This document shows positions 3,085-50,215 of a DNA stretch of 64,000 nt, piece after piece. Each line of letters begins with the position of its first letter. The stretch's first letter is position 1. The DNA comes from Acidimicrobiales bacterium (GTDB taxonomy: Bacteria > Actinomycetota > Acidimicrobiia > Acidimicrobiales > CADCSY01): assembly GCA_035540955.1 (NCBI GenBank), contig DATLFP010000030.1:5709-69708 (forward strand), given 5' to 3'. The translations under genes were made by a program, and so were the position numbers. The notes beneath the pieces are model-generated. The model made no database searches. It was not told the origin of the DNA and was given only the letters and a program-made list of their open reading frames with translations.

Positions 3085-3507
3085 GTGAGCGAGGGTGATG
3101 AAGGCCGGAACATGGGAACCCCCGAGGAGGTCGGGGCCGCGTACGAGCAGTTCCGCGCCGCCTTCCGCCCGCGTGCGATGACTCCGGAGGAAGAAGCTGC
3201 CATGGGGCTCGCCATCGAGCTCTCCGACGCGGAGCTCCGCGCGTTCGTCGAGATGAACCGGGCGAGCGCCATGGCTGCCGAGTTTCCGGAGGAGCTGCGC
3301 GAGACGGTGCTCAGCGATCTCGCACAGGCGATGTCGCTGGCCGAAGCACTGCATAGGTCGTGGAGCGCCGACACCGAACCGGCGGACTTGCTCGCCAGTG
3401 CTCGCGCGTTGCGTGACGCGGCTGCCGCACTCGCGACGACGATCGAAGCGCTCTGGCCGGGGAGTCCGCCCCCGGATTACAGCCGCGACTTCCTCGCCGA
3501 CGGCTGA
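3085..3507 (+). CDS. hypothetical protein (140 aa, acidic/helical)
   Basis: ORF 3085..3507 has G/C-rich third positions. SD-like GGGAGG lies about 6-8 nt upstream of the GTG start. It is divergent from the kinase gene. No family recognised. Confidence 0.6.
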   Translation: MSEGDEGRNMGTPEEVGAAYEQFRAAFRPRAMTPEEEAAMGLAIELSDAELRAFVEMNRASAMAAEFPEELRETVLSDLAQAMSLAEALHRSWSADTEPADLLASARALRDAAAALATTIEALWPGSPPPDYSRDFLADG

Positions 3508-3523
3508 CCGCCAGGACAGATCG

Positions 3524-4135
3524 GTGCCTTCGACCGTGGCGAGTCTGTTCGCGGCCGCTGGACTGACCCACGCTGGCGTCATGCGGTGGGGCACGCCACC
3601 GAAACTGGACCAGCCGGGTGCCTACGTCGTCGCCCGTACTGAGTCGCTCGACGACCTCGTGTCCGAGTGGCACGCGGAGCTTTCATCCGCGGCCCTCGCT
3701 GAACTGCTCGACACGCGGCCGGAGCTGCGGCTGGACGGTCGGCGTCCTTCGACCGCCGACCTGGGGGACCGGCTGCAGCACTTCTGGCTTCCCGACGAGC
3801 CCGTGCTGTACATCGGGCTCGCCTCGACATCCGTCCGTACCCGCGTCACCGCGTACTACCGCACCCGGCTCGGAGCGAGGAAGCCCCACGCCGGCGGCTG
3901 GTTCCTGAAGACGCTCAGCGACCTCGATGACCTCTGGGTGCACGTAGCCCCCGCAGCCGATCCCGCAGGTGCCGAGGACGCGATGCTGCGCTCGTTCTGC
4001 TCTGGGGTCTCGGACGCGTCCGGTGCTCGACTCCGGGACCCTGATCGGCCGTTCCCGTTCGCCAACCTCGAGTGGCCGCCCGGCGTGCGGAAGCGGCACG
4101 GGATCACCGGAGCCAAGGAACCTCAGCCTCTATGA
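3524..4135 (+). CDS. hypothetical protein with GIY-YIG-like motifs (tentative nuclease fold)
   Basis: This is the in-frame GTG at 3524 inside ORF 3398..4135; the upstream part of that ORF overlaps the previous gene and is Arg/Ser-rich junk. Motifs are QPGAYVVART ... EPVLYIGLASTSVRTRVTAYY ... AEDAMLRSF ... PFANLEWP. The GxY and YIG elements are much further apart than in canonical GIY-YIG, so the fold call is weak. Confidence 0.55.
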   Translation: MPSTVASLFAAAGLTHAGVMRWGTPPKLDQPGAYVVARTESLDDLVSEWHAELSSAALAELLDTRPELRLDGRRPSTADLGDRLQHFWLPDEPVLYIGLASTSVRTRVTAYYRTRLGARKPHAGGWFLKTLSDLDDLWVHVAPAADPAGAEDAMLRSFCSGVSDASGARLRDPDRPFPFANLEWPPGVRKRHGITGAKEPQPL

Positions 4136-4163
4136 GCGATGCGGGGGTGGACGACCTCGCGAC

Positions 4164-4194
4164 GAGCCGCGCGACACGAGCGGGGTCGCGGCTC
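4164..4194. terminator. possible bidirectional stem-loop between convergent genes
   Basis: Imperfect inverted repeat GAGCCGCGCGAC ... GTCGCGGCTC overlaps the pAgo stop codon. There is no T-tract. Confidence 0.2.
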
Positions 4195-5650
4195 AGATGT
4201 AGTAGCTGAACCTCGTCTGCGGCTCCTCGTCCTCGTCGACCTCAGCCATGATGGTTCCGACCTTCTGTGCGAACGCCAAGGTCACCGGGAACTGCATGTG
4301 ATCGGCGGCCGAGTTCCAGTTCAGCTTGGTGAGCGCCATGACGTCCTGTGCTGCTCGTTCGATGTCGACGTCGTCGTCCGCGACCAGATCGAGCGGAACT
4401 GGGATGTGCGAACCCTTGTAGGTGCGACGGTTGGCTTGGTAGCCGGTGGTGAGGAGAAAGGCGCGATCGCCGATCGTCGTGAGCGAGCCTCGCGGAGGCG
4501 GGTAGTCGCCTTGACGGAGCAACCGGAAGTCGCTTGTACGTAGCGCCACGAACTCGACCTCGGGAACGTTGTCCAGGGCACGAAGTGCGCCTCGACGTTC
4601 GCCGTCGGTGAACGCAGTCGTCTTGTGCACCACCACGCGCCGAGGGTCGCGCGCCGTGCGGAGGCGGTAGTGCTCCAGCACATTGAGGACGAGCCGAGCG
4701 GTCTCGTCCTCGGAGAGCCGCAAGCGCAAGTCGTCAGGTGTCTTCTCGGCCTCGCCGCCGCGAAGGGCGAATCCCTCCGATCCCGGATAGAAGGCTTGAG
4801 CGAGTCCGGCGTTGACGGAGTGGCCGCCGCGATGCCACCGGTGGTGGAACGAGATGCCGATGTAGAGCGTGTCGAGCGCGGGCGTCGCCACTCGCCACGG
4901 GGCTCCACCTGCCTTGTAGAAGAGCGCGACACCGAGGTTCCACGCACGACTCGCGGGGTCGTCGTGGCGTCCGGGGATTGGTCCAAAGAGGTTTGGTGTG
5001 ACGATCTGGATCGGCGCCGCAATCCGCATTGCCGACGCCTTCAGCGCGCGACGGAAGTCTCGTTCGAGCAGCGCCTCTGGTCCGGTCAGCGCTTCGATCG
5101 TCGCCGGCTGCTCGTCGAAGAGGCTCAGCTGCGCGGTGGGCTTCACGGGTGCGTCCGCGAAGCGAACGCGACGGCAGTGCTTCAGGACTTCGCCTGGGAT
5201 TGCGCACAAGATGAGGTCCGGAGGAGGATCGCTGTGAACGCGCAGCTGTTCGAGCCCCGCCGTCCAGATTGCGAGCAGCTCGCGGAACGCCTTCGGCGGA
5301 TCAAGGTCCAGAGCTTCGGCGAGCTGATGGTCGGGGATGATGTACGTCCAGCTGTCATCGACGAGCAGCTGGCTATGGAAGGTCGACGCGAAGCCGGGGA
5401 ACGGCGGTCGCTGCAGCTGCATGTCCCCAAGCGTGGGGATGCTGTCTTGCATCATGGCCAGGAAGCCGCGGGCCTTCGATACGGGGCTCGCCGGTCCCAC
5501 GAGGCCCACGCGCACCTGCTGCGGGTGTCTGGCGCCGAGGCTGAGGCTGTACGGCCCGAAGGCCGTGAGCCCCTCCTTGACGCGGCTGTCAGTTCCGGTG
5601 CCGAACTCCAGCGTCGGCTCTTCGAGCTGCCGTACCACGACGCGGGTCAC
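4193..5650 (-). CDS. short prokaryotic Argonaute (MID-PIWI only, catalytically inactive)
   Basis: 485-aa ORF. It has the PIWI-entry motif ALFYKAGGAPWRV. Catalytic DEDX positions are substituted (LYIGISFH instead of GxDV; VVVHKTTAF instead of HRDG). The C-terminus ...QTRFSYYI is pAgo-like. The GTG start overlaps the upstream stop (GTGA at 5647-5650). Confidence 0.85.
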   Translation of the reverse strand: MTRVVVRQLEEPTLEFGTGTDSRVKEGLTAFGPYSLSLGARHPQQVRVGLVGPASPVSKARGFLAMMQDSIPTLGDMQLQRPPFPGFASTFHSQLLVDDSWTYIIPDHQLAEALDLDPPKAFRELLAIWTAGLEQLRVHSDPPPDLILCAIPGEVLKHCRRVRFADAPVKPTAQLSLFDEQPATIEALTGPEALLERDFRRALKASAMRIAAPIQIVTPNLFGPIPGRHDDPASRAWNLGVALFYKAGGAPWRVATPALDTLYIGISFHHRWHRGGHSVNAGLAQAFYPGSEGFALRGGEAEKTPDDLRLRLSEDETARLVLNVLEHYRLRTARDPRRVVVHKTTAFTDGERRGALRALDNVPEVEFVALRTSDFRLLRQGDYPPPRGSLTTIGDRAFLLTTGYQANRRTYKGSHIPVPLDLVADDDVDIERAAQDVMALTKLNWNSAADHMQFPVTLAFAQKVGTIMAEVDEDEEPQTRFSYYI

Positions 5651-8241
5651 GGTTCCTCCACGTCATCGAAGTCGTCGAACTCATCGTCATCGAGGTCGTC
5701 AACTTCGTCGTCGATGTGCTCCAGATCCTCCGGGTCGGGCTCGTCATTTGCACCAGATCCTTGGGTTGGCAGCATCCCTGCTTCGTCGCGGCGGAGCGGG
5801 GTTCGTTCGAGGTAGACGGCATCGGAGCCGTCATCGAGGACCGCCGAGTCCGCATCGCCGCAGATCGCCCATGCCCAGAAGAACACGTGGTTGAGAACGG
5901 ACTGGTTGCGCTCGTTGCCCATCTTTCGTGTCGAAAGCTGCGTTGTGCGTCGGCGCGTCTCGAGCTTCCCGCGCCCGTCGGTCGTGAAGACCCATGTCGG
6001 GTCGACGGTTAGGAGCCACTCGTCCTCGACATGGATGAACGACCACGCCATCGCCTGGTGCTCGTAGTAGGGGCGTCGGCTCTCCGCGGCCTTCATTCGT
6101 GAGACCGTGCGCGTCGCGACGCGCATCCGTGCCTGGTACTCGACTTCGCGGTCACTGCCGTCGTCGTTGATGTGGAACCAGATCCGACCCTTCCTGTGGT
6201 GGACCTCCGTGCCGTCGGCCTGCATGTGCCGCTCGAACATCCGGTTCAGCAGCTCGATGACGTGAGCCTCGCCATCAGGCGACGAGCAGACCTCCTCGAC
6301 GGCGTGAAGCTCGGGAGCCTCGACGTGGGATCGAAGCGGATTAGTCGCCTGCGAGAGGTCCGAGAACGTGTAGAGGTTGCGGCCGTCCAGCACGAAGCGG
6401 GGCACAGCCTCACCTGGATGGGAGTCGAAGACATCTCGAGGCTTGCGCGCCCTCGTCGGGCCTACCCAGATCTCCTCGGGCACCTTGACCCGGAGAGCGT
6501 TCACGTAGAAGACCTCGTACGAGCCCTCGGGGACGACGATTGATGCTCCCGGACGGCTGTCGGCTCGGCTCGTGACTACTGCTTCGAACTGGCGGTTCGC
6601 TGTGCCGACGTCGAAGGTCGCGACGCCTCCTCCGTCGCGTGCCCAGCGACGGACGTCGACCAAGCCGCTCCCGTACTTGTCCATCAAGCCGGTGGCGTAG
6701 AACACCTCTGCGAGGCTCGGATTGCGGTAGTGACGCACGGCTCGCTCACCGAGGTCGTCGATGTCTTCCGGATCGACGAGGCCACCTGGGTTGATGATGC
6801 GGAGACGCTGTTCGTCGATCGAGACGTCGATCGGCTCATCGGCCTCGTGGTCGCGATGCACCAGGGCGTTGACCAGTAGCTCCTTCACCGCCAGTGGCGG
6901 ATACGGGCGCACCTCGAACGACTGGGGGCCCTTGACCCGGTACGGCTCGTTCGCCGCCGCGATCAGCTCGGTCAGCTCGTCATAGAGCTCGAACAGGTTG
7001 CCGGTTACCGAACGGACGCGGCCGCCGCTCTCGATCGTCGCGGCGACTGGCCTGTCGTTCCCGAACAACAGGCGACCGGCGTTCGTCAACGTTTCGCCCA
7101 GGCTTGTTGGCGTCAGCAGGTTCATGAGCCGCAACCGGTCGCGGGCTGCGTCGGCGTCTCGGGAAGGGTTTGAAAGAGCGAGTCGTTCGAGGGCAGCATC
7201 ACCGAGCACTCGAGTCACGAGCTCGCTGTCGAACCCGTCGGCGTCTGCGGACCTTGCATCGAACGGCAACCAGTCGGCTGGCCGGGTCGATGGGTCGCGC
7301 ATCACGCCCTCGTCGAGCTCAGCCATGATCTCGTCGAACCCCTCGATCTCGACGAGCGCGAAGTTCCCGCCGCACCTCTCCGCGAGCTGAAGGACATGCG
7401 GGTGGAGATCGCCGTCGCGCGGTCTCGTGCACCAGTAGACGCCGTGTGGCAGAGCGACGGCTCCCGTCGAAGCGGCGGCGAGCAGGAGGTCGCGGTACAC
7501 CGACGGCTCGGCCCCTCTGTAGCCGATCACGATCAATGGATGATCCGCGATCAGCGGGATGATCCGGCTCGCATACGTGGGGTCGAGCTGTGCGACCTCC
7601 TCCGTGAGGTTGAGGTCCGCGTAGTGCTCGATGACTCCGTGCACGTGGATCACCTGGCTGACCGCCGGATCGGTCGAGATGAGGTCGACTTGCGCGGGTG
7701 ACTGGATCTGGATGATCGATGAGGCCGATGGGTCGCGCCGGCAACTGTCGTAGATGAGCGTCTCGAAGTTCGGCGTAAGGATCGTATGGATGCGCCGCTT
7801 GCCGACCAGCGACGCGAGCGCTCGGTAGCCGCTGCTAGCCAGATCAGGGCTGACGATCACCTGCTCCTGCAGGAACTGTCGACGTCGTTCGCGCGGCTCG
7901 AGGAGTTCCTTGATGTGCCGTGCGTAGAGCTCCTGCAGCTCGAGGGTCGGATCGAACCACTCGTGCGCGCTGACCCACGGGTACCAGTCGCTGCGCATCA
8001 ACGCGGGGTCGTCCAGATCGCGCCCGTGCTTCCGGCAGTACGCGTAACGACCGATCAGCTCGATGAGCTGCCATACGAGGGGCACGCCCGACGTGGCGGA
8101 TGCGCCCGCACCCAGAAGCAGCACGGGACGCGGTCGGCCATCGCGGACCACAGACCGGAGATCGGCGATGTCGGTCTTCCTCATCGGTACCGCCTCGTAC
8201 GTGTGTTCGAACAGTAGTCCTTCGTCGGCATCGCGAACCAC
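5647..8241 (-). CDS. SIR2 - (HATPase_c_4/RecG-C-like module) - APAZ effector partner of short pAgo, with poly-acidic C-terminal tail
   Basis: 864-aa ORF. The N-terminal SIR2-type motifs are VLLLGAGASATSGVP, HTILTPNFETL (Asn) and VIHVHG (His). The central block is LTNAGRLLFG...PLAVKELLVNALVHRDHEADEPIDVSIDEQRLRIINPGGL...YRNPSLAEVFYATGLMDKYGSGL. The C-terminal third follows the APAZ pattern I recall from TIR-APAZ/SIR2-APAZ proteins (PRFVLDGRNLYTFSDL; HVIELLNRMFERHM; YYEHQAMAWSFIHVEDEWLLTVDPTWVFTTDG; ERNQSVLNHVFFW). It ends in DEPDPEDLEHIDDEVDDLDDDEFDDFDDVEEP. Confidence 0.85.
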   Translation of the reverse strand: MVRDADEGLLFEHTYEAVPMRKTDIADLRSVVRDGRPRPVLLLGAGASATSGVPLVWQLIELIGRYAYCRKHGRDLDDPALMRSDWYPWVSAHEWFDPTLELQELYARHIKELLEPRERRRQFLQEQVIVSPDLASSGYRALASLVGKRRIHTILTPNFETLIYDSCRRDPSASSIIQIQSPAQVDLISTDPAVSQVIHVHGVIEHYADLNLTEEVAQLDPTYASRIIPLIADHPLIVIGYRGAEPSVYRDLLLAAASTGAVALPHGVYWCTRPRDGDLHPHVLQLAERCGGNFALVEIEGFDEIMAELDEGVMRDPSTRPADWLPFDARSADADGFDSELVTRVLGDAALERLALSNPSRDADAARDRLRLMNLLTPTSLGETLTNAGRLLFGNDRPVAATIESGGRVRSVTGNLFELYDELTELIAAANEPYRVKGPQSFEVRPYPPLAVKELLVNALVHRDHEADEPIDVSIDEQRLRIINPGGLVDPEDIDDLGERAVRHYRNPSLAEVFYATGLMDKYGSGLVDVRRWARDGGGVATFDVGTANRQFEAVVTSRADSRPGASIVVPEGSYEVFYVNALRVKVPEEIWVGPTRARKPRDVFDSHPGEAVPRFVLDGRNLYTFSDLSQATNPLRSHVEAPELHAVEEVCSSPDGEAHVIELLNRMFERHMQADGTEVHHRKGRIWFHINDDGSDREVEYQARMRVATRTVSRMKAAESRRPYYEHQAMAWSFIHVEDEWLLTVDPTWVFTTDGRGKLETRRRTTQLSTRKMGNERNQSVLNHVFFWAWAICGDADSAVLDDGSDAVYLERTPLRRDEAGMLPTQGSGANDEPDPEDLEHIDDEVDDLDDDEFDDFDDVEEP

Positions 8242-8258
8242 GGCGCTGTAGTTACACG

Positions 8259-8278
8259 GCTGTCAGAAGGGTGACAGC
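8259..8278. promoter_or_regulatory. 7-bp perfect inverted repeat (GCTGTCA-N6-TGACAGC) 18 nt upstream of the SIR2-APAZ start
   Basis: Read directly. It lies in the 178-bp divergent intergenic region between the pAgo operon and the coupling-protein gene. Confidence 0.35.
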
Positions 8279-8419
8279 GTCGGCCTGTGCATCGCTAGGG
8301 GAACAACCCGGGTTCTTCCTGTGGACAACCTGTGGAGCCTGAGCCGCCGCCGGTAGCCGCCGCCGGTAGCCGCACGCTGGAATGTCGCCGAAACGGCCTC
8401 GTGAGGGCTTGCAGGTGGT

Positions 8420-10246
8420 GTGCGAGACCATGACGACCCGATCGCCGTCCTGCTGTTCGGCGTCCTGTGCTTCGTCGCCGCCGTGGCCGGCGTCGTCTGG
8501 GCCGGGGCGGCGTTGGCGACGGTTGTCTCGGGTGGTGGGGGACTCGACGCCGGGGTCGCTGACGCCGCACTAGCGGGGGTCTCGCTTCCAGGCCACCTGA
8601 GCGACCCGGCCGAGGCGTGGCCAGTCCCGGCGTCGGCCCGGATCCCGGGACCGTGGCTCTACTGGCCGTCGACGGCGGTCGCGTTCGTTGCCGCTGGAGG
8701 CGCGACAGCGGCGGTACTGCGGTGGCGGGCAGGTGCGAAGGGCATCGGGCCGATCCGTCTGCAGCGCTTGGGCGTCAAGGGCGCCGCTCGGTTCGCGACG
8801 GCTCGCGACCTGGCGCCGCTGGTCGTCAACGGCCCACAGCCCGGCCGGTTCATCCTCGGCCGCGTCAACGGCAAGCTCGTCGCCACCGAGGACCGTCGCG
8901 CCTCGCCCGCCACCGGCAGGCGGGCACGCCAGCGTCAGGGTGATCGCGGCGCGGTTGCGCTGATCGGGCCGTCTCGGTCGGGCAAGACGACGGCGGCGAT
9001 CGCGGGGATCCTGGAGTGGGACGGCCCCGCAGTCCTCGCATCGGTGAAGACCGACCTGCTCGCGGCGACGGTCAACTGGCGCACGAAGCAGGGCGAGGTG
9101 CGGGTGTTCGACCCGACCGGCTGTACCGGACAGCAGCCGGCGTCGTGGTCGCCGTTGCGCGACGCAACGACGGTGCAGGGCGCACAGCGAGCCGCGCGCA
9201 TCCTCGCGGACACCGCGCCAGGCGACCTCGAGGACGACGCGTTCTGGACGTCGCAGTGCGAGATCCTGCTCTTCGCGCTGCTGTTCACCGCGGCGAACAC
9301 GCCCGGTAGGTCGATGCGCCACGTCGTCGACTGGGTGCTGACCCAGGACAAGCCCGGCGAGCTCGGCCGCGGCGACCTGGAGCCACTGCTCCAGGCGCTC
9401 ATTGCATCGGACGAGCCCGAACTGGTCGCGGGCGCCGAGGAGGCGGGGAAGGCGCTGCTCGCCATCTGGCAGATGGACGAGCGCACGCGCTCCTCCGTGT
9501 ACGCGACGGCGCAGAGCGTCGTGTGGCCGTGGGCCGATCCCGGTGTCGCCGCGTCGGCCGACGACAGCGACGTCGATCTCGATTGGCTGTGCTCGGGCCC
9601 CAACACGCTCTACATCTGCGCGCCGATCGACGACCAGAAGCGGCTGCAGCCGGTGTTTGGCGGCCTCCTCGGTGACCTGATCCGGCAGGCGTTCGCCCAC
9701 GCCAACGGCACCGGCAAGCCGCTCGATCCTCCGTTGCTGGTCGTGATCGACGAGGCGGGAAACACGCCGTTGCGGTCGCTGCCCGAGTACGCGTCCACCG
9801 TCGCCGGCATCGGGATCCTGCTGGTCACCATCTGGCAGTCGAAGGCCCAGCTCGATGTCGCCTACCAGCGGGCCGCAGACACCATCCTCACCAACCACCT
9901 GACGAAGGTCTTCTACACCTCGGCATCGGACCTGTCCGGCCTCGAGCTCGCCGCTCGGCTCGTCGGCGATGCCTACCTGCCGATGCGCGCCACGAACAAC
10001 GACCTGCGCGGACCGGGCGGCTCGCTGTCGGAGTCGTCGCAGGCCATCCCGCTGGCGCCGGCGGAGGTGATGCGGCAGATGGTGCCGGGCGACGCGCTCC
10101 TCATACACGGCACGCTGCCCCCGGCGCAGCTCCGCACCCGGCCGTATCACCGCGAGCGTGACTTGGCTCGACGCGTCGGCGACGTCGACCTCGCCGCTCC
10201 TCCGTCGTCGCAGCAGAAGCAGAGCCCTGTGGGCGCGGAGGCATGA
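8420..10246 (+). CDS. type IV secretion coupling protein (VirD4/TraD/TraG family ATPase)
   Basis: 608 aa. It has N-terminal TM segments, Walker A IGPSRSGKTT, Walker B LLVVIDEAGN and the family pattern ...WTSQCEILLFALLF.... Confidence 0.9.
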   Translation: MRDHDDPIAVLLFGVLCFVAAVAGVVWAGAALATVVSGGGGLDAGVADAALAGVSLPGHLSDPAEAWPVPASARIPGPWLYWPSTAVAFVAAGGATAAVLRWRAGAKGIGPIRLQRLGVKGAARFATARDLAPLVVNGPQPGRFILGRVNGKLVATEDRRASPATGRRARQRQGDRGAVALIGPSRSGKTTAAIAGILEWDGPAVLASVKTDLLAATVNWRTKQGEVRVFDPTGCTGQQPASWSPLRDATTVQGAQRAARILADTAPGDLEDDAFWTSQCEILLFALLFTAANTPGRSMRHVVDWVLTQDKPGELGRGDLEPLLQALIASDEPELVAGAEEAGKALLAIWQMDERTRSSVYATAQSVVWPWADPGVAASADDSDVDLDWLCSGPNTLYICAPIDDQKRLQPVFGGLLGDLIRQAFAHANGTGKPLDPPLLVVIDEAGNTPLRSLPEYASTVAGIGILLVTIWQSKAQLDVAYQRAADTILTNHLTKVFYTSASDLSGLELAARLVGDAYLPMRATNNDLRGPGGSLSESSQAIPLAPAEVMRQMVPGDALLIHGTLPPAQLRTRPYHRERDLARRVGDVDLAAPPSSQQKQSPVGAEA

Positions 10247-10577: not shown

Positions 10578-11050
10578 CACCCGAGGAAGCCGTGGTCGTC
10601 GCTTGCGAACGATGCGTCACCGCCGCATCGCTGCTCGCCGCCACGCAGCTCCCGGTCGATGCCGACGACCGCGCCGTCGGTCGCACGCTGGCAGCGGGGG
10701 TGGTGTGCGGTTGGGCAGACGAGACATCGGTGGGCTCGGCCGACGCCACAGGGATCAACGTGCGCGAGCGCGGCGAGACGGCGGCCGTTCGCGTGCGCTG
10801 GACCGAGGTCGCGGCCTCGATCCGCCCCGGGCTGCGCGAGCCCGGCGTCGCCGAACGGCTGGCCGAGGCGTACGGGCGGTACGCGGCCGCGGCAACGGCG
10901 ACCTCGGTCGCGGCGCGCCTCGAGGCGAAGGCGGCGTCGGCGGAGCTGGCCCAGCTCCGGCGTCACGTGCTCGCTCGCGGCCGCGAAGGCGTGCCGTTCC
11001 AGCAGTCGCTGTTCCCGCCAACACCGACACGCGGAAGGAGCCTCGCGTGA
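10574..11050 (+). CDS. hypothetical protein
   Basis: GTG at 10574 within ORF 10469..11050. It is translationally coupled on both sides, and the coding-like composition starts at VTPEEAVVVACERC. Confidence 0.55.
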   Translation: MTPEEAVVVACERCVTAASLLAATQLPVDADDRAVGRTLAAGVVCGWADETSVGSADATGINVRERGETAAVRVRWTEVAASIRPGLREPGVAERLAEAYGRYAAAATATSVAARLEAKAASAELAQLRRHVLARGREGVPFQQSLFPPTPTRGRSLA

Positions 11051-11889
11051 CGCAGGACGACGCAGCGCCGGTCGGTCGCTACGTCGGCCGCGGGGACGCC
11101 GGGGACCGCAACGTGCTCTGGTGGGTGCCACCCGGCGGTGCGCCCCGGGAGCAGCTGCCGAGCGTGCGTCGACGCAGCATCGACGGTCCCAACTGGGGCT
11201 ACGAGGGCAACGGCCCGACCGATGCTGCCGAGGCGATCCTCCTGCACGCGACCGGCGACCCGGTAGCCGCCGAGCGTCACGCCCGGACGTTCGCCGCCGA
11301 CGTGCTCGCCCACCAGGCGATCGACCGCTATCTCGATCTCTCGGCAACGACGGTCGAGGGGTGGGTTCTCGAGCGGGGCATCACGCTCGCGCCGGGGTGG
11401 AGCGCGCACGGGCCGCAACCCGTCGTCCGGCACTGGCGAGAGGTCGACGGGACCGAGCGGTATGCCGTCGCCCTCGACGGCTGGGATCTGCTGCGCATCG
11501 ACCTCCCCGACGAGTCACCGGCGGCGGTCGTCGGGGTCGCCGACCTGAAGTCGCGCCGCGAGTTGCGCTGGTCGAAGTCCATCGTCGTGGCGGAGCCCGG
11601 TGACGGACACGAGCCCGGTGCCGTCGGTGCACGGGTCACTTCCGAGCGGCTGCCGTTCGGCGGCTGGGCGATCCAGGTCGACGGCTTCGACGCCGCCATC
11701 GTCGAGCGCGACAGCGCGGCGGGGACCGACGCACGCGTCGCGATCTACGACCGCACCCCGGACTCGGGCTTCCTCGTGTTCGACGACGTGGTCCGCTACC
11801 GCCAGCTCGCCACCGAGCCGGTCGCCATCGGCGAGCTGCTCCGCCGGTTCAGCGGCACCGCCGGCCGGGATCGAGTCCTCGGCCGGTGA
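11047..11889 (+). CDS. hypothetical protein with WGYxGxGP-type motif (mobile-element associated family)
   Basis: GTG at 11047 within ORF 10603..11889 (GTGA overlap). The motif GPNWGYEGNGPTDAAEAILLHATGD resembles a domain of unknown function seen in actinobacterial mobile elements (from memory, unverified). Confidence 0.6.
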   Translation: MTQDDAAPVGRYVGRGDAGDRNVLWWVPPGGAPREQLPSVRRRSIDGPNWGYEGNGPTDAAEAILLHATGDPVAAERHARTFAADVLAHQAIDRYLDLSATTVEGWVLERGITLAPGWSAHGPQPVVRHWREVDGTERYAVALDGWDLLRIDLPDESPAAVVGVADLKSRRELRWSKSIVVAEPGDGHEPGAVGARVTSERLPFGGWAIQVDGFDAAIVERDSAAGTDARVAIYDRTPDSGFLVFDDVVRYRQLATEPVAIGELLRRFSGTAGRDRVLGR

Positions 11890-11953
11890 CGGCAGGCGAG
11901 GTAGCGTGTGTCTCGGGATCGGAGCGCGCCCCGACAGCAGCAGCTGTCCTTCG

Positions 11954-12307
11954 ATGCGCTCCTCGCCGAGGACCAACTCGCCGAGGAGGCACCCCGTGAA
12001 CGACTTCACGACGCTCGCTCACCACTGGCTGGAGAGCCACCCGAACCCGTCGGCGGTCACGGACGATCCGGACCGCTGGGCCGAACAGACGGGGCTCAGG
12101 ATCCGGCACCGGATCCGGGAGCTGGCCGACCAGCTCGCGCCACGGATGCCGGGGGAGGAGTACCTGGACCGGCTGCGCCGGCTCAACTCGGCCTGGCAGA
12201 CGGCGACGGAAGTGGCGATCGACGAGCACCTGCCGATCTACGACCCGACGCCGGACGAGGACGAGGACTGGGTGCCGCTGATCCCGGACATCTCCGACCT
12301 CCTGTAG
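11954..12307 (+). CDS. hypothetical protein (start ambiguous: 11906, 11954 or 11996)
   Basis: This frame is strongly coding by third-position G/C (..VNDFTTLAHHWLESHPNPSAVTDDPDRWAEQTGLRIRHRIRELADQL..IPDISDLL*). It may be the detached N-terminus of the next gene (see findings). Confidence 0.5.
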   Translation: MRSSPRTNSPRRHPVNDFTTLAHHWLESHPNPSAVTDDPDRWAEQTGLRIRHRIRELADQLAPRMPGEEYLDRLRRLNSAWQTATEVAIDEHLPIYDPTPDEDEDWVPLIPDISDLL

Positions 12308-15300
12308 CGCGGGGGTTCCGCGCGGCCGACCAGTCGGCGTTCGCGCCGGCTGGCGTAGCGGCGAAGACGACCGCCAACCTCGATGCCCTTCGCCTCCTTC
12401 GCACGCTCGAACGCGAAGGGCGGCGCGCCACCAACGACGAGCAGCGCGTCCTGGCCCGGTGGGCGGGTTGGGGCGCGCTCGCACACGCCTTCGACGAGCA
12501 CGATCCAGCCGGACGGCGACTGCACGCTGAGCTCATCGGCCTGCTGACGGACACCGAACTCGCTTCTGCTCGCCGCTCGACGCTCAACGCCCACTACACC
12601 GACGCCGGCATCACCACCGCCATGTGGCGGTTCGCCATCGGACTCGGCTTCGACGGAGGTCGGGTGCTGGAACCCGGCTGCGGCACGGGCGTGTTCCTCG
12701 CCACGCGCCCGGACAACCTCGTGATCGACGCGACCGGCGTCGAGGTCGAACCGGTCACCGCGCGGATCGCCGCCCTCCTGCACCCGGACGCCGACATCCG
12801 CAGCGAGGGTTTCGAGGCGACGCGGCTTGCCGACCTCGTCGACCTCGTGATCGGCAACGTGCCCTTCGCCAAGGTCGCCCTGCACGACCCGGTTCACAAC
12901 CGAGGGCGCCACTCGATCCACAACCACTTCCTCGTCAAGGCACTGGCGCTCACGCGCCCGGGTGGCCTGCTGGTGGCGATCACGTCGCGCTACACCCTCG
13001 ACAGCCGCAACCCCGCGGCCCGGCGCGAGCTCGCCGCGCTCGGGGACTTCGTCGGGGCCGCCCGCCTCCCGTCGGCAGCCCATCGCGCCGCCGCCGGCAC
13101 CGACGTCGTCACCGACATCGTCGTCTACCGACGGCGCTCGGACGGTGACGTGCCGAGCCACGCCGGCCCGTGGCAGGCCAGCGTCCCCCTCGACATCGAC
13201 GGCGGCGTGCGGCCCGTCAACGAGTGGTTCGCCAGCGAAGCCGCCCTCGTCGTCGGTCGACTCGTCGCGGGCAACGGCGTGTACGGGCGTGAGGACCTCA
13301 GCGTCCAGCTCGACGCACCGCTCGAACCGGCGCTCGACGCCGCGCTCGATCGCGTCGCGTCGCTTGCACGCCAGCGCGACCTCGCCTACCGGGCGCGCCC
13401 GTCGGTTGCGAGCCTGCCGAGCGCGGCCGTCGCTCCACGCGGCGGCGTGCCAGCCGGCGCGAAGGAAGGGTCGATCCATCGTGCCGGAAGCAGCTTCGTG
13501 CGAGTGGTCGGAGGCGTGCCTCAACCGTTCGAACCCTCACCTCGCAAGGACGCTTCGGAGCTGGTGGCGCTGTGCGACCTGCGCGACACGACCATCGGGC
13601 TGCTCGACGTACAGGCACTGCACGTCGACGACGCCCGATGCCTGGCGCTGCAAGCGGAGCTCAACGATCGCTATGACCGCTACGTCGAGAGGTTCGGGCC
13701 GCTCAACCGGTTCCGGCTGGCGCGCACCGGTCGGACCGACCCCGTCTCCGGCGCCGATCTGTACCGCCGGATGAACCCGGCCATGGGCGGGTTCGACGAT
13801 GACCCCGACTTCCGCACGCTCCTCGCCCTCGAGGACTTCGACCCCGACTCACAGACCGCGACCAAGGCGGCGATCTTCAGCCGCCGGCTGCTCGCTCCGG
13901 CGGCAGCGAGGTACGGCGCCGACACGGCGGACGACGCTCTCGCCGTCAGCCTCGATGAGACCGGACGGGTCGACCTCGACCGCATCGCCGAGCTGCTTGA
14001 CCGCAACGCCGATGAGGCGTTGGGCCAGCTCGCCGACCGCGTCTACCGAGACCCGGCCACTGGCGAGCTCGTGCCCGCCGAGCAGTACCTGTCCGGCGAC
14101 GTCCGCGTCCGGCTCGACGCCGCCCGAGCGGCCGCCGAGTCCGATACCGCTTTCGCGGCGAACGTCGCCGCGCTCGAGCGCGTGCTCCCGGCCGATCTCA
14201 CCCCGGCAGAGATCGACGCTCGGCTCGGCGCGCCGTGGATCCCCGCCGCCGATGTCGAAGCGTTCTGCACCGACCTGCTCGGCGCCGACGGCATCGAGGT
14301 CGAGCACGCGCCGCTGACGGCGACATGGGCCATCGCCGCGACGACCTGGTCCCGCCGCACTGTCGCGGCCACGAGCGAGTGGGGCACGGCCCGGGCCGAT
14401 GCCGTCGCGCTGATCGAGGCCTCGCTCAACCAGCGCCCAGCCACGGTGTACGACACGCTCGAAGACGGCACCCGAGTCGTGAACCCGGCGGAGACGATCG
14501 CGGCGCGCGAAAAGCAGGAGGCGATCGATGCCCGCTTCGCCGAATGGCTGTGGTCCGACCCGGACCGGGCCGACCGGCTCGCTCGTGTCTACAACCGAAC
14601 CTTCAACGCCACCGTCCTCGCCCGCTACGACGGCTCGCACCTCACGCTGCCGGGCCTGTCCGCCGCCTTCACCCCGCACCCCCACCAGCGCGACGCCGTG
14701 TGGCGGATCGTGTCGACCGGCGACACGCTGCTCGCGCACGCCGTCGGCGCCGGCAAGACGGCGACCATGGTCATGGCGGCGATGGAGCAGCGCCGCCTCG
14801 GTCTCGTCGAGAAGCCTGCGTTCATCGTGCCCAACCACATGCTTGACCAGTTCGCCCGCGAGCTGCTTCAGCTTTACCCGAGCGCGCGCGTGCTCGTCGC
14901 CACCCGCGAGGACGCGTCGCCCGCGGGCCGCAAGCAGTTCGTCGCCCGGTGCGCAACCGGCGCCTGGGACGCGGTCGTGCTCACTCACTCGAGCTTCGAG
15001 CGGATCCCGCTCGCCGCCGCCACCCGAGCCGAGTTCACAGCTGAACGGATGGAGGAGTTCCGTGCCGCGATCGCCGAATCGGCGTCCGGTAAGGGACTGA
15101 CCGTCAAGCGGCTCGAAGCGACGCTCGCCCGCCTCGAGGCGCGCCACCAAGAGCTCGCCGCCGCCCACAAGAAGGACGACGGCGCCACCTTCGAGCAGAC
15201 GGGCATCGACTTCGTGTTCTGCGACGAGGCCCACGCGTTCAAGAACAAAGCGTTCCCGACCCGCATCCAAGGCGTCGGCGGCACCGGCTCGAAGCGGTCC

Positions 15301-17160
15301 GAGGACCTCGACACGAAGCTGTGGTGGCTGCGCCACCGGCACGGCTCCCGCGCCGCGTGCTTCGCCACCGCGACCCCAATCGCGAACTCGATTGCCGAGC
15401 TGTACGTCGCCCAGACCTACCTCCAGCCGGCAGCGCTCGCCGCCGCCGGCATCGGCGGGTTCGACGCGTGGGCGGCAACGTTCGCGGCGACGGTCGCCTC
15501 GCTCGAGCTCTCGCCCGACGGTGGCTCCTACCGGCTGACCCACCGCCTCGCCCGCTACCGCAACGTCCCCGAGCTCGTTACCCTCGCCCGGCAGGTCGCC
15601 GATGTCCGCACAAGCGACCAGCTCGACCTACCCGTGCCTCACCTGCGCGGCGGACGAGCGGAAACCGTCGTCGCGGCACCATCGGACGAGCTGCGGGACT
15701 ACGTCGCCTCCCTCGTCGATCGCGCCCAGGCGGTTCGCGACCGGCGCGTTCCACCGGAGGAGGACAACATGCTCAAGGTCACGGGCGACGGCCGCAAGGC
15801 CGCGCTCGACCTCCGGCTGGTGGGCCGCCGCCCCGACCCGACCGGCGGCAAGATCGCCGCCGCGGCCGACCGGATCGCCGCGATCCACCTCGCCAACGCG
15901 GACCGTGCGTACGTCGATCCTTCCGGCGACCCATCACCGCGCCCGGGGGCGATGCAGTTCGTGTTCTGCGACCTCGGCACACCGAGCAGCGATCGCTGGA
16001 ACGTCTACGACCATCTGAAGGCGCTGCTCGTCGAGCGTGGTGTACCGGGCGAGCGCATCCGCTTCGTGCATGACGCCACCAACGACCGTGCGAAGGCCGA
16101 CCTGTTCGCCGGCTGCCGCGACGGCCGCGTGAGCGTGCTCGTCGGCTCCACCGAGAAGATGGGCGTCGGGACGAACGCGCAAGATCGTGCCGTCGCCCTC
16201 CATCATCTGGACTGCCCATGGCGACCCGCCGACATCGAACAGCGCGAGGGGCGCATCCGCCGCCAGGGCAACCAGAACCCCGAGGTCGAGATCATCCGCT
16301 ACGTCACAGAGGGCAGTTTCGACATCTTCATGTGGCAGACCGTCGAGCGGAAGGCGGCGTTCATTGCCCAGGTCATGCACGGCGGCACTTTCGCCCGCGA
16401 GATCGACGATGTCGGCGACCAGGCGCTCTCCTACGCCGAAGTGAAGGCGCTAGCGACGGGCAACCCGCACATCGTCGAGAAGGCGGGCGTTGACGCCGAG
16501 GTCGCAAAGCTCACGCGTCTCCGCACGGCGCACCAGCGAGACCAATCGGCGCTCGCGCTGACCCACGCGTCGGCCAGCGCTCGCGCCCAGCGCCTCGAAC
16601 GCGAAGCAGAGTTGTGCGCGGCCGCCATGGACCGGCGCGTCGACACCCGCGCCGACCACTTCCACGCAACCATCGCGGGTACCCGACACTCCTCTCGTGC
16701 CGATGCCGGCGCCCACTTGCGGCAGCTCCTCTCGACCGAGCGCGAGGTCGTCGGGTCGTTCGCCGGCTTTGAGCTGCGCGCTCGAGCGGACCGTCATTCC
16801 GGACTCGTCACCCTCGCTCTCGAGCCCAGTCCGATCACGGTCGAGCTTGACCTGCCCGAGCTCGCCGAGGCCGACCCGGGCCGCCTGATGCAGCGGCTGG
16901 AGCATCGACTCGGGCGCTTGGAGCGCGACCTCGAGGACGCTCGCACCGGTGCGGACATCGCCCGCGCCGAAGGCGAACGAGCCGCCGCGCGGCTCGACCA
17001 GCCGTTCGAGCACGCTGGGCGCCTCACCAAGCTCACGGAGCGGCAAGCCGAGCTCGAACTGCTCCTCACGCCCGAACCAGAGCCACCCGTGGTCGAGCCG
17101 CCCTCAGTCGCCAGCCGGCTCGCCGCTGTCAGCGCCGAACCCGCCGTGAGAACGCGGTGA
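12306..17160 (+). CDS. N6-adenine DNA methyltransferase fused to SNF2/DEAD-like helicase (conjugative-element type); true start unresolved
   Basis: It lies in ORF 11908..17160. Coding composition and family-like sequence begin only at about 12306 (ARGFRAADQSAFAPAGVAAKTTANLDALRLL). MTase motifs are VLEPGCGTGVF and IGNVPFAK. Helicase motifs are LLAHAVGAGKTATMV, FCDEAHAFKN and DIEQREGRIRRQGN. There is no ATG/GTG/TTG in frame between 11908 and 12621. Confidence 0.85.
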
Positions 17161-17235: not shown

Positions 17236-20200
17236 CTACCGGGCGCGGACTCGATTCCGTTGTGGGGGCGTGCCGGTCTCTGCTGCACGGTGGGCGAGCA
17301 CATCCCATTGCCGGCGTCCGAGAGGCTCGTCGGGCCGGGGACCGAGGAGAGAACGCAACCCCCGCTGGGGGCCGTCGTCGACGAGGTCGCGGCTGTACCG
17401 CGACCGGAACTCGGCGATCTCGACATACAGGCGGGCCAGCGTCGAGGTCGGGATGCCGGCAGCGAAGCCCCCGGCCGCGCCGAGCTCGCGGAGGTGCTGT
17501 CGCAGCCAAGGGGGTGGCGCACACAGGAGGGACCGGTGCTCCGGTGCGAGCGCGTTGTCACCGCGGGCGTGGTCCCGGAGCAGTCGAGTGGCGACGCCGG
17601 CCCACACGTCACCGACGAGCCAGAGGGCTTCGGCCCGTTCGGCCGCCTGGGTCTCGCACCCGGGCGAGCCAAGAATTCGGCCGCTGGGGGAGCCACCCGG
17701 GATGGGCGCGGGCTCCCAGCGCGCCCGGTAGGCGCCGACCGCGCCGACGGCAGTGTCCCAGCGCGCTGCGAGCCACGGCACCTCGGGGCGGGCCGGCAGC
17801 AGAGCGTGGACCCACGGTGGAGGCTCGGCAACCGCGGCGCGAGCCGCCGCGTTCGCGGCGATCTGCTCGGCCCGCGTGGCGATGGCGAGATCGTCCTTGT
17901 CTCCTCTATCCATGGCCTCGCGCGCGGCGCGCAGGTGTGCGGGTGTGTGGCCGGCTCGGGCGTCGGCGACCGCGAGGGCGCGGAAGTCGACCTCGAGGGC
18001 GCTGCGGTCCTCGTCGGGGCGGCCGACGGCGGCGAGCACCTCGGCGACGACGTCGTCCTCGGGCGGGCGGGGCAGGTGTCCCTCGCCGCTCAGGTTGTCG
18101 GACGGCGCAGCGATGAACAGGTGGTTGTCGTGCCGACCCCGCGTGAGGTTGACGTACAGCTCGCGCCGTCGCGCGCCGGCGGTCACGGCGCTGGTCGAGG
18201 CCGGCAGCGTCGCGCCTTGCACGGCGTAGCTCGTGAGGGCGTACCCGTAGTCGAGGCCCACCCCTGCGCGACCCCGCCGGTCGGCGTGCTCCTCGACGAA
18301 CTGCCGGGGGACGTCGATGCGCCCGAGGACGTCGAAGTCGACGGTCAGCGAGTCGTCACCGGCGTTCACGACACGTCCTCGTGACCCGTTGCGCACGTAG
18401 GAGCGCGGCGCGCCCGGCGGATGCAGGTCGCGGGCCGGTCGCCGGGCGACGACTTCGTCGCCGACGCAGAACTCCCGCCCGTCGTTCGCGCAGAGACCGG
18501 TGGCGCCGACATCACCTTCGGCTTGCAGCACTCGGTGGGCGACGGCGTTGAGGATGCGCCGGGTCCGGTTGCGACGGTCGATCATCGGGTGTCCTTCACC
18601 GGCGCGGCGCGCCCCGAGCCAGCGGGTGACCATCGCCGCATACAGACCGTCGGCGTCGCGGACCTCGGTCAGCTGTCCCGCCGAGCGCAGCGCAGCGACC
18701 GCCTCGGCGACGCGGCCGGCGCGCACCGCGTCGACCACGTAACGATCGACCGCGGTGGTCTGGCGGCGGTTCTCCTTCAGTACGGGAACCGCCGCCGGCC
18801 TGCGGCGGCACAGCGCCGCGAACATGCCGCCGGCGGCGACGGCGCCGTGCTGTGCAGGGTCACCGACGAGCCGGACCGCCGAGCCTGCCGTGCTCACCTG
18901 CGCCAGCAGACCGGCGAGATCGCGCGTGCCGAGGGTTGACGCCTCGTCGACGAGCACGACGGTGCGGTCGTCGAGGTGCTCGTGGCCGGTTGCGAGCGCG
19001 GTGAGCCACCACGCCATCGTCTCGGCATGGACGCCGGTGGCCTCGCCGAGCAGGCGCGCCGCCTCGCCCTTCACCGCGGCGCCCACGACGCGATTCCCGC
19101 GCGCCTGCCACGCCCGCGCCGCGACAGCGAGGCTGTGGGTCTTGCCGCTGCCGGGGCGTCCGACCGCGCACTGCACACCCATCCCGGATGTGCAGAGGTC
19201 TCGGACGAAGACCTGTTGCTCCTCGGAGAGGGCCTCCCATCCCGGTGCCGCTTCCAACGCCAGTGCTGGTACCACGGCCGCGCCCGCGTCGAGGGCGGCG
19301 TCGAACGCGCGGCGTACGCGGTCCTCGAGCCGAGCGTGGCTCACGGTGGTGAAGGTCGGCTCGCCCCCCGTGGCGTCGACGCGAACACCGTCGCCGCGGG
19401 TGATGGAGTCCCGGGCTCGCCGGCCTCGGCCGTCGAGCTCGATCACGCGCTCCGATGCGAGGAACCGGTCGGCCAAGCGCACGACCTCGTCTGGTGGGAG
19501 CACGACGAGCTCGTTGTCGACCGTCCACCGGCAGATCGCCTCGATCACCTCGCCGCGAGCGAACGTGGGTGACTCGGCGACAACCGCTTCGTCGAGCCAC
19601 GCGGCGAGCGCCCCCTCCATCTCATCGGACAGCCGCACGCGCACACGAGGAGCGCGACGATCGAAGCACGAGGCGAGCGCGCGCCTGCCGAAGCCTGTGG
19701 CGCGAGCGCGCTGCATCCAGCCAGCTCGTAGCTCCTCGACGGGCGTTCGGGCCTTGGCGGCGCGGGTGGCGAGCACGACGCGGTCGGTGTCGGCTGGGCC
19801 GAGGGGTCGGCCGAGGGCCTCGGACAGCTCGGCCAGCGCGGCGTCCACCTCGTCGCGGCGGGTCGAGAACTCGCGGATCGTCGCGTCGGGCACACCGTCG
19901 GCTTCCCACACGCCGCGCGCCGAGCGGCGCCACCGCACGCCGAGCTCATCGGAGAGGCGCCAGCGGATTGCCGCGGTTGCCAGCGCGGCGGCCGCGGGCG
20001 CGTGGCGGTACAGGGCGCGGCCGTCGAGGGCGCGCCGTTCGCCGAACTCGTCCGCCACCGCGTTGGCCACGACGTTGTGCCGGTGTGGGAAGGGATCGAG
20101 CGCCCTCGACGTGGCGTGGAGGAACGACGCGACGACGAGTCCTTCGGTCCCGACGCGCTGGCCCAGTCGGCGACCGACCGCGGCGTGGTCCTCGAGGAAC

Positions 20201-21195: not shown

Positions 21196-21205
21196 CGACC
21201 GGCCC

Positions 21206-21230
21206 GCAGGTTTCCCGAAGGGAAACCTGC
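21206..21230. promoter_or_regulatory. perfect 11-bp hairpin (GCAGGTTTCCC-GAA-GGGAAACCTGC), candidate oriT element or 5'-UTR structure
   Basis: Read directly. It sits 11 nt upstream of the relaxase start candidate 21195, and no U-tract follows on the transcribed strand. Confidence 0.4.
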
Positions 21231-21280
21231 AAGCGTGTATCTGCGGGTAGGGCGGTCCGCGAGGACGCGGGTGGCGCCGC

Positions 21281-21324
21281 AAACGTGAGTGGCTCGCGAG
21301 GCGTTGGGGTCGAAAACGTGAGCG
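21281..21324 (+). repeat. two AAACGTGAG(T/C)G iterons upstream of the relaxase
   Basis: aaacgtgagtgg at 21281-21292 and aaacgtgagcg at 21314-21324. Confidence 0.6.
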
Positions 21325-21367
21325 CGGAGCGAGTTCGCGAGTAGGCCTGGAGAGCGGTGGTTCGCGG

Positions 21368-24062
<2,695 letters not shown>

Positions 24063-27139: not shown

Positions 27140-27143
<4 letters not shown>
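25611..27143 (+). CDS. EthA-type flavin monooxygenase (Baeyer-Villiger class)
   Basis: ATG at 25611 overlaps the previous stop. The FAD motif is VVGAGLSGI. The BVMO fingerprint variant is YGGTMVHPQDWP. The second Rossmann motif is VVVIGSGATAV. Confidence 0.9.
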
Positions 27144-31175
<4,032 letters not shown>

Positions 31176-50170: not shown

Positions 50171-50198
50171 ATGCGACAGTAGGCCAGATTTGTCGCAT
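50171..50198. promoter_or_regulatory. perfect palindromic operator ATGCGACA-N12-TGTCGCAT
   Basis: Read directly. It lies 18 bp upstream of the ATG (50216) of the BVMO paralog. Confidence 0.5.
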
Positions 50199-50215
50199 TG
50201 GTGCAGGAGGGACCC

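Follow-up and report, generated by a model that had tools for sequence, protein, structure and literature searches.

A short Argonaute operon with a SIR2-GHKL-APAZ partner protein in an Acidimicrobiales genome belongs to a widespread, already catalogued subfamily

Two coupled genes and their products

The 64,000-nucleotide stretch of Acidimicrobiales DNA analysed here (hereafter the window; assembly GCA_035540955.1, contig DATLFP010000030.1, positions 5,709 to 69,708) carries on its minus strand an operon of two genes, one coding for a short prokaryotic Argonaute (pAgo) and the other for a partner protein that joins a SIR2 domain, a module of the GHKL type and an APAZ domain (Table 1). The operon is an intact two-gene bacterial immune system. 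The three-part build of its partner is what proteins of this widespread and already catalogued subfamily normally have, and the locus itself is not new.

An earlier note on this DNA had described two minus-strand open reading frames (ORFs) of 864 and 485 amino acids, coupled by a GTGA overlap. Both are present, at 5647..8241 and 4193..5650, and the overlap (5647-5650) is carried by GAACCGTGACCC, in which TGA closes the partner gene and GTG opens the pAgo gene; an identical 4-nt overlap joins the two genes at a locus 97% identical to this one (L081). The longer frame does exist, with a mechanical opening at GTG 8241, but the true start is most likely ATG 8184-8182 (residue M20), giving a partner of 845 and not 864 residues. 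This start is favoured because a GAGG motif stands 8 nt upstream of it, because close homologues open at a methionine matching residue 20 (MRKTDI) and because the deposited protein HVM52034.1 is identical to the 845-residue form. A second record, HVM52033.1, is identical to the pAgo. The source of both is a 114-kb contig of an Acidimicrobiales metagenome-assembled genome (MAG), and their NCBI names are 'ATP-binding protein' and 'hypothetical protein'. Residue numbers below refer to the 864-residue frame unless stated otherwise. A scan for promoter and terminator consensus sequences over 3800-8700 found nothing, as expected for actinobacterial sequence with a guanine plus cytosine (GC) content of 65-70%.

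NCBIfam holds no model for either protein of the operon, and the pAgo is recognised by the profiles neither of Pfam, Piwi included, nor of NCBIfam. Standard annotation pipelines therefore overlook this defence system, and operons of this kind are invisible in standard annotation. In RefSeq, a homologue encoded on a Mesorhizobium plasmid (NZ_CP083953.1) is labelled merely 'SIR2 family protein'.

The 485-residue protein is matched end to end by the PADLOC model pAgo_I (PDLC02376, E 1.5e-124) and over its full length by the short pAgos of the PDB, among them the SPARHA pAgo 9om4_B (E 1.8e-70) and the SPARDA pAgos (E 1e-37 to 1e-40). In its PIWI domain the motifs G-I-S-F (265-268) and H-K-T-T (342-345) stand in for the catalytic Asp motifs, and alignment with the SPARHA pAgo shows identical GISFH and HKTT motifs. 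Across 79 sequences these positions are occupied by G, I or V, S or T, and F, and by H, K, T or S, and S or T, but never by Asp, while the residues of the MID pocket for the 5' end (R200-K204-Q215-K246) are invariant in 79/79. The protein thus has the features by which short pAgos are defined (Koopal 2022): it consists of MID and PIWI only, lacks the DEDX tetrad and has an APAZ partner in the same operon. The proposal of a MID-PIWI-only Argonaute unable to slice agrees with these motifs. By sequence the pAgo is predicted to be a sensor and not a slicer, because GISF and HKTT are common to it and the experimentally inactive SPARHA pAgo and are kept in all 79 sequences.

The order SIR2, extra module, APAZ, followed by an acidic tail, is confirmed for the partner, as had been proposed, because Pfam, PADLOC, a sequence search of the PDB and an AlphaFold2 model compared by Foldseek all agree on it. 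The PADLOC model PDLC02402 aligns its positions 5-864 (of 876) with residues 28-855 (E 5e-212), PDLC02418 ('Aga_SIR2-Kinase-PNTD1-PNTD2') matches with E 1e-132, and the REase-PNTD1-PNTD2 models also match the APAZ region. The AlphaFold2 model, built on an alignment of 84 family members, has a mean predicted local distance difference test (pLDDT) score of 84.6 and a predicted template modelling (pTM) score of 0.51; the individual domains are therefore confident but their mutual arrangement is not. In the numbering of the 845-residue protein, a Rossmann-like N-terminal domain reaches about 295, after which the chain is mostly unstructured linker as far as about 345; an alpha/beta sandwich, preceded by a small subdomain of alpha/beta type, runs to about 540, a beta-rich APAZ domain ends at about 800, and a disordered tail lies beyond. 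The top whole-chain match in the PDB found by Foldseek is the SPARSA Sir2-APAZ protein 8y80_E (E 5.8e-20). The partner is far longer than a canonical SIR2-APAZ protein, as the earlier note had said: the latter measures 587 residues in PDB 8in8_B. Conservation was read from alignments of 23 and 84 family members, with identities down to 32-40%, and invariance below refers to both.

Within the SIR2 domain, residues 41-318 match the Geobacter Sir2-APAZ protein in the PDB sequence search (E 3e-10), Pfam places SIR2_2 on residues 153-275 (24.4 bits), and Foldseek matches this part to SPARSA Sir2-APAZ and to ThsA. The domain shares about 25% identity with GsSir2, whose N142 is the counterpart of N158 in the alignment. 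Its motifs are a GAGAS loop (44-48), N158 in ILTPNFE and H201 in VIHVHG; G44, A45, G46, S48, N158 (within TxNF followed by D or E) and H201 (within HG) are invariant. The Gly-rich loop, Asn and His expected earlier are thus kept throughout the family. A SPARSA-type SIR2 effector requires this catalytic Asn and His, both of which the partner has, though its Pfam score is marginal, and judged by its motifs the domain is probably catalytically competent.

We regard it as very improbable that such a domain serves an end other than NAD+ depletion, whether by ADP-ribosylating or deacylating a specific target or by making a signalling nucleotide. The SIR2 superfamily does include transferases, and both the identity to GsSir2 and the Pfam SIR2_2 match are low enough to leave room for one. 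Against this, the defence domains of the SIR2_2 type in the literature covered (SPARSA, ThsA, DSR2) are all NADases, the catalytic Asn and His do not vary, and the locus showed no conserved third gene that might code for a substrate or receptor. NAD+ hydrolysis is the output that we assume below.

The C-terminal part of the partner had been called APAZ-like, and sequence and fold both bear this out. Residues ~540-859 match the DUF4365-APAZ protein 9qbp_A (E 3e-16), the HNH-APAZ protein 9om4_A (E 2e-13) and the DREN-APAZ protein 9jsb_D (E 6e-5), and in Foldseek the best-fitting APAZ chains of SPARDA and SPARHA reach target-normalised TM-scores of 0.68-0.80. The tail that follows has 21 Asp or Glu among the last 40 residues of the protein, and at least 12 are found in the final 40 residues of 78/84 family members. 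In SPARTA the acidic tail is an autoinhibitory mimic of nucleic acid, and SPARSA is reported to be without such a tail (SPARTA structure preprint). A conserved acidic tail, present in SPARTA but reportedly absent from SPARSA, therefore appears as a regulatory feature of S2 type in this SIR2 system.

Table 1. Features of the operon and of its surroundings (positions in the window)
Feature	Position	Strand	Remarks
Short pAgo gene, MID-PIWI only	4193..5650	minus	485 amino acids; PADLOC pAgo_I PDLC02376 match
SIR2-GHKL-APAZ partner gene	5647..8184	minus	845 amino acids from ATG 8184; stop TGA 5647-5649
GTGA stop/start overlap	5647..5650	minus	translational coupling; direct sequence reading
GAGG Shine-Dalgarno-like motif	8193..8196	minus	8 nt 5' of ATG 8184; direct sequence reading
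SIR2 (SIR2_2 / DHS-like) NADase-type domain	7297..8184	minus	residues 20-315; Pfam, PDB, Foldseek
Linker, poorly conserved	7150..7296	minus	residues 316-364; mostly coil in model, pLDDT ~70-90; variable columns
Central module: Schlafen-ATPase-type pre-domain and GHKL (HATPase_c_4, PF13749) Bergerat-fold domain	6565..7149	minus	residues 365-559
APAZ domain	5785..6522	minus	about residues 574-819; PDB sequence matches, Foldseek, PADLOC
Acidic C-terminal tail	5650..5784	minus	residues 820-864; disordered in model, pLDDT <50
643-amino-acid ORF	1064-2995	plus	beyond the 3' end of the pAgo gene
245-amino-acid ORF	3398-4135	plus	downstream of the pAgo gene, converging on it
TraG/VirD4-type type IV coupling protein gene	8420-10246	plus	divergent from the operon
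DUF6166 gene	10603-11889	plus	
Fusion gene, N-terminal methyltransferase-like and C-terminal SNF2/DrmD-like helicase	11908-17160	plus	1750 amino acids
TrwC relaxase gene with AAA_30	17236-21735	minus	

Clade, family and earlier cataloguing

The earlier note had raised a placement in S1B, the clade of SPARSA. Comparison of both proteins contradicts it. The pAgo scores 241 bits against the SPARHA pAgo 9om4_B, 131-143 against SPARDA pAgos, 111-120 against SPARTA pAgos and 81 against the GsSir2/Ago pAgo 8in8_C, and the APAZ region matches by sequence the APAZ chains of S2B only, with no match to GsSir2-APAZ. Neither protein groups with the GsSir2/Ago-type sequences of S1A/S1B, and an S1B placement was rejected on the scores of the pAgo (241 bits vs 81 to GsAgo) and on the S2B matches of the APAZ domain. 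The nearest systems are those associated with DUF4365, HNH and Mrr, which together with the SIR2 effector corresponds to the SIR2 subgroup of S2B (Prostova 2023; APAZ group IIb of Ryazansky). Because SPARHA and SPARDA are by far the nearer relatives of its pAgo and APAZ, the system would belong to the heterogeneous clade S2B, as a member with SIR2, and would not be an S1B SPARSA with an insertion, a placement obtained by ranking bit scores and not from a tree.

The arrangement had been thought undescribed, and this did not hold. A search of 5.8 billion proteins returned 209 clusters of partner homologues at E up to 1e-5; among the best 120 of them, nearly all are 830-990 residues long and bear a prior annotation of PF13289, PF13749 or, in most cases, the two together. 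When one genome of each GTDB species was scanned, 448 loci held a relative of the partner, and among the best 80 of these a full-length short pAgo lies directly downstream in 78, the two exceptions being a contig end and a truncated gene. These 80 loci come from at least seven phyla: they include Acidimicrobiia and Solirubrobacterales (Actinomycetota), Acidobacteriota, Poribacteria, Bacteroidota, Chloroflexota, many Alphaproteobacteria and Rhodopirellula (Planctomycetota). Cultured strains also have homologues, for example Mesorhizobium loti DSM 2626 (L061), Novosphingobium naphthalenivorans NBRC 102051 (L036) and Bradyrhizobium yuanmingense (L052). An exhaustive HMMER search with the GHKL and APAZ part alone gave 69 clusters (50% identity) at E up to 1e-30. 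Most of the full-length matches, which also include shorter and longer proteins, are about 830-930 residues long, with the match starting at about residue 320-450, and therefore have room for an N-terminal SIR2 domain. The more than 100 homologue clusters and the 78 loci thus share the central module as a routine feature, which the earlier note had itself named as grounds for refuting its claim, and so does the catalogue: model PDLC02402 ('Aga_SIR2-PNTD1-PNTD2') of PADLOC-DB v2.0.0 (2023) spans 876 positions, of which the partner matches 5-864, and therefore includes that module. The 'Kinase' in the name of PDLC02418 denotes the histidine-kinase-like ATPase module.

Several published labels fit the domain names of this family and for that reason are taken to refer to it. 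S2B operons with 'DHS-like-APAZ' were listed by Koopal 2022, S2B 'includes a subgroup of SIR2 effectors' according to Prostova 2023, and the SPARTA structure preprint gives 'RecG/DHS-like' among the domains fused to APAZ; the Pfam description of PF13749 is 'recG C-terminal'. The supplements of Ryazansky 2018 were searched for the membership of og_40 and nothing was found. We infer by domain names, not by accession, that og_40 and the 'DHS-like-APAZ' of Koopal are this family. The SPARHA paper speaks of 'additional uncharacterized effectors' in S2B. In the searchable literature we found no experimental study of the SIR2-GHKL-APAZ subfamily and no discussion of a GHKL module in a short-pAgo partner, GHKL together with APAZ surfacing solely in the RzAgo preprint considered below; publications of 2023-2026 that combine APAZ, SIR2 and ATPase concern other systems.

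Some members of the family depart from the common form. Four-module relatives of 1100-1270 residues carry an extra enzyme N-terminal to SIR2-GHKL-APAZ, namely a PNP_UDP_1 phosphorylase (P0156, P0092), a calcineurin-like metallophosphatase (P0157) or a trypsin-like protease, Trypsin_2 (P0174), and in P0149 and P0160 an unannotated N-terminal region of about 380 residues is found. In a Beijerinckiaceae MAG (L072, 6001-11783) a stretch of about 1.4 kb with an ORF of 463 amino acids (8334-9725) interrupts the partner gene close to its 3' end; residues 727-798 are then encoded a second time, and the pAgo follows. The insert is probably a mobile element that inactivated the system. An Acidimicrobiales MAG (OZ243946.1; L026, 6001-6885; P0101) retains, at 69% identity, the SIR2 part only (residues 17-311), with no detectable pAgo within 6 kb. 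Here decay or recombination has left a mere remnant of the system, in a lineage related to that of the window.

The GHKL module and a proposed model of activation

What sets the subfamily apart is the extra module, about 240 residues in all, made up of a linker of about 50 residues and of about 195 residues that comprise a Schlafen-ATPase-type subdomain and a GHKL fold. HATPase_c_4 had been suggested as its identity, and the Pfam match to this family (PF13749) at 469-537 upholds the suggestion (E 1.3e-11, 44.8 bits vs a cut-off of 26); HATPase_c matches weakly at 451-506 (E 0.0017). Residues 319-527 align by sequence with residues 156-376 of DIP2311 (PDB 3lmm; E 2.6e-12), which in Foldseek also covers the middle of the partner (E 1.5e-11), and the AlphaFold2 model of the module has the helix-strand order of an alpha/beta sandwich. 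The GHKL superfamily is recognised by a Bergerat fold with N-box, G1 and G2 motifs, and the module has them: an N-box (E454/N458/H462), NPGG (484-487), YRN (505-507) and GSGL (524-527). Invariant among these are E454, N458, H462, G486, Y505-R506-N507 and G524-S525-G526-L527. Such invariance at 32-40% identity therefore favours a nucleotide-binding role over that of a spacer, and the module looks functional as a nucleotide binder.

A PF13749 domain has been characterised in RzAgo, where it binds and hydrolyses ATP. Residues E314 and N318 of RzAgo coordinate the gamma-phosphate of ATP and Mg2+, ATP binding by the domain drives tetramerisation, and the affinity for ATP is merely submillimolar (10.64898/2026.05.29.728809). 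By motif, E454 and N458 of the partner correspond to these two residues.

That the module is instead a degenerate spacer or scaffold left by a Schlafen-ATPase ancestor, with no nucleotide role and with activation by target DNA alone as in SPARSA or SPARTA, seems to us unlikely. Canonical SIR2-APAZ and TIR-APAZ systems function without such a module, and in this family the G1 box departs from the classical form (NPGG or SPGG) and the usual AlbA_2 nuclease companion has been lost, Pfam giving no match to AlbA_2/Schlafen (PF04326) in the partner at E up to 1. It is hard, however, to explain in this way a full set of nucleotide-binding motifs invariant in 84 sequences of such low identity, and in RzAgo a domain of this Pfam family does bind and hydrolyse ATP. 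A nucleotide-binding module thus remains our preferred reading of the region.

Two other identities of the region were considered and ruled out. A hidden Schlafen/AlbA_2 domain would have to coexist with the lack of a PF04326 match at E up to 1; the region N-terminal to the GHKL domain is instead the linker and the subdomain that follows AlbA_2 in 3lmm, and PF04326 is carried by none of the listed homologues. The position N-terminal to GHKL, taken by Schlafen/AlbA_2 in Schlafen-ATPases ('Schlatpases'), is occupied by SIR2 in the partner. The name 'HTH transcriptional regulator', borne by some homologues in JGI, does not apply either: the fold is GHKL-like, and APAZ replaces the C-terminal helix-turn-helix (HTH) of the COG2865 type. 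A search with the central module for SLFN-GHKL-APAZ relatives, as a test of whether SIR2 had been exchanged for Schlafen, returned fragments and stand-alone Schlafen-ATPases only, the nearest relatives of the module outside the family being PF13749 proteins with or without PF04326. The exhaustive search with the GHKL and APAZ part found SIR2 in all nine full-length architectures checked by Pfam, as well as shorter proteins with unannotated N-termini.

We propose, with a probability of roughly 0.6, that guide-directed sensing of DNA switches on NAD+ depletion by SIR2, with the GHKL module providing ATP-dependent oligomerisation, in a defence system of the SIR2 subgroup of S2B. The proposal starts from the anatomy, the conservation of catalytic and binding motifs, the family membership and the gene pairing found here, and is extended by homology to the heterodimer, the type of guide, the NADase output, autoinhibition by the tail and the role of ATP. 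The two co-translated proteins would assemble into a heterodimer, with APAZ contributing the N/L1/L2 half that the Argonaute is missing, and a small guide, probably of RNA, would be held by its 5' end in the MID pocket (R200, K204, Q215, K246). At rest the acidic tail probably fills the nucleic-acid channel and keeps the complex inhibited, as was shown for SPARTA. When the guide pairs with plasmid or phage DNA, the tail may be expelled and pAgo-pAgo oligomerisation may follow, by which the SIR2 domains would be gathered; NAD+ would be hydrolysed through N158 and H201, and arrest or death of the cell would follow (abortive infection). The GHKL module would bind ATP and most likely act as a clamp for ATP-dependent dimerisation or tetramerisation that pre-assembles or licenses SIR2, by comparison with the PF13749 domain of RzAgo. 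Oligomeric activation induced by the target has precedents in SPARSA, SPARTA, SPARDA and SPARHA.

Several points weigh against this proposal. The SIR2_2 score lies just below its cut-off (24.4 vs 24.5), the clade assignment is based on bit scores and not on a tree, and a pTM of just 0.51 leaves the inter-domain arrangement of the partner unpredicted. The G1 box is NPGG or SPGG and not the classical DxGxG, which makes hydrolysis of ATP, unlike its binding, uncertain. The nearest pAgo and APAZ relatives belong to filament-forming nuclease systems, and the geometry of activation may differ from that of SPARSA. Finally, no member of the subfamily was found characterised in the searchable literature, and the NADase output, the guide type and the ATP dependence are extrapolations.

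The GHKL module might also be a sensor or checkpoint in its own right, for ATP, the energy state or a phage nucleotide or protein, so that two inputs are needed or SIR2 fires independently of the Argonaute. GHKL domains are generally nucleotide-controlled switches, the submillimolar affinity of RzAgo is compatible with the sensing of physiological ATP, and the PNP_UDP_1, Metallophos and Trypsin_2 domains added N-terminally in some relatives suggest a modular signalling platform. We nevertheless consider this quite improbable, as the near-obligate pairing with a short pAgo (78/80 loci) points to the pAgo as the primary sensor and there is no evidence of a PF13749 ligand other than ATP.

The preferred scheme of guide-directed activation can be taken a step further, although only tentatively, with the balance of probability against us. 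Through the GHKL module, activation of SIR2 may come to depend on two inputs, in that ATP pre-assembles or licenses SIR2 dimers or tetramers and guide-directed recognition by pAgo-APAZ releases them. The NADase of a short-Argonaute immune complex would then be under the control of a Bergerat-fold ATP switch, and the GHKL-APAZ chassis may have been reused with PNP_UDP_1, metallophosphatase and trypsin-like protease as added effectors. The ATP-dependent tetramerisation driven by GHKL in RzAgo (2026) provides a concrete and testable hypothesis for the central module. If ATP-gated activation of the NADase were true, the immunity of short and of long-B Argonautes would be linked through a shared regulatory module. 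The interest therefore resides in the unexplained GHKL module of the subfamily and not in this locus, which is one more copy of a family detected by the catalogue.

Genomic setting and comparison with known systems

The GC content of the operon is 65%, with about 0.80 at third codon positions (GC3), and that of its flanks is 70-75% (GC3 0.85-0.97). The operon is probably the defence cargo of an integrative-conjugative or plasmid-like element, because it adjoins conjugative-transfer genes (Table 1). A tRNA scan of the 64-kb window found none, hence no attachment site was identified; no integrase was found in the window, and the operon had no megablast match among plasmids. On the other side of the operon, the ORFs of 643 and 245 amino acids matched no Pfam, NCBIfam or PADLOC family besides a weak, sub-threshold DUF6301 match.

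From about 24 kb on, the window is ordinary catabolic chromosome. A cluster at 24700-59200 includes four monooxygenases of flavin/Baeyer-Villiger type (25470-27143, 27894-29912, 39794-41605 and 50198-51652) along with thiolase-like proteins, an enoyl-CoA hydratase, an acyl-CoA dehydrogenase, an AMP-dependent ligase, an alpha/beta hydrolase and a short-chain dehydrogenase. Two gene sets for ABC transporters of the branched-chain type belong to it as well, and their fused permease/ATPase ORFs (44532-47324; 52928-59135) are unusually long.

Among known systems, the operon is closest to those covered by PDLC02402/PDLC02418 together with PDLC02376, where the partner has the same length and the same order of three modules and nothing structural differs. 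These are bioinformatic catalogue entries of putative function, and they describe the family to which the partner belongs.

SPARSA (GsSir2/Ago, S1B; PDB 8in8, 8jkz, 8y80) resembles the operon in its catalytically dead short pAgo, in a partner with N-terminal SIR2 and C-terminal APAZ that keeps the Asn and His, in the presumed output of NAD+ depletion and in giving the best whole-chain structural match to our partner. Its own partner, however, has 587 residues without GHKL and an APAZ not detectably similar in sequence; its pAgo is distant (81 bits, vs 241 for SPARHA), and it is reported without the acidic C-terminal tail that marks this family.

In both sequence and fold, the pAgo and APAZ of the operon come closest to those of the S2B systems SPARHA (HNH-APAZ, PDB 9om4) and SPARDA (DREN/DUF4365-APAZ, PDB 9qbp, 9qbl, 9jsb). 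These systems share the GISF and HKTT motifs of PIWI and the R-K motif of MID, and the SPARHA partner also ends in an acidic stretch. Their effector is a filament-forming nuclease that degrades DNA, whereas here it is SIR2, with GHKL placed between effector and APAZ.

The central module itself has its counterpart, by sequence and fold, in the Schlatpase proteins (DIP2311, PDB 3lmm; the 'RecG-like / HTH regulator' proteins of the COG2865 type), but their AlbA_2 domain and C-terminal HTH are absent from the partner, in which SIR2 and APAZ sit in those places. A comparable use of the module is found in the SLFN-pAgo RzAgo of Runella zeae (10.64898/2026.05.29.728809). That protein is a single-chain long-B pAgo with PAZ, with a Schlafen/AlbA_2 tRNA nuclease as effector and no APAZ partner, whereas the system described here consists of two proteins and a short pAgo; in both, a PF13749 GHKL domain with a conserved E-x-x-x-N motif lies between an N-terminal effector and a sensor of the Argonaute type.

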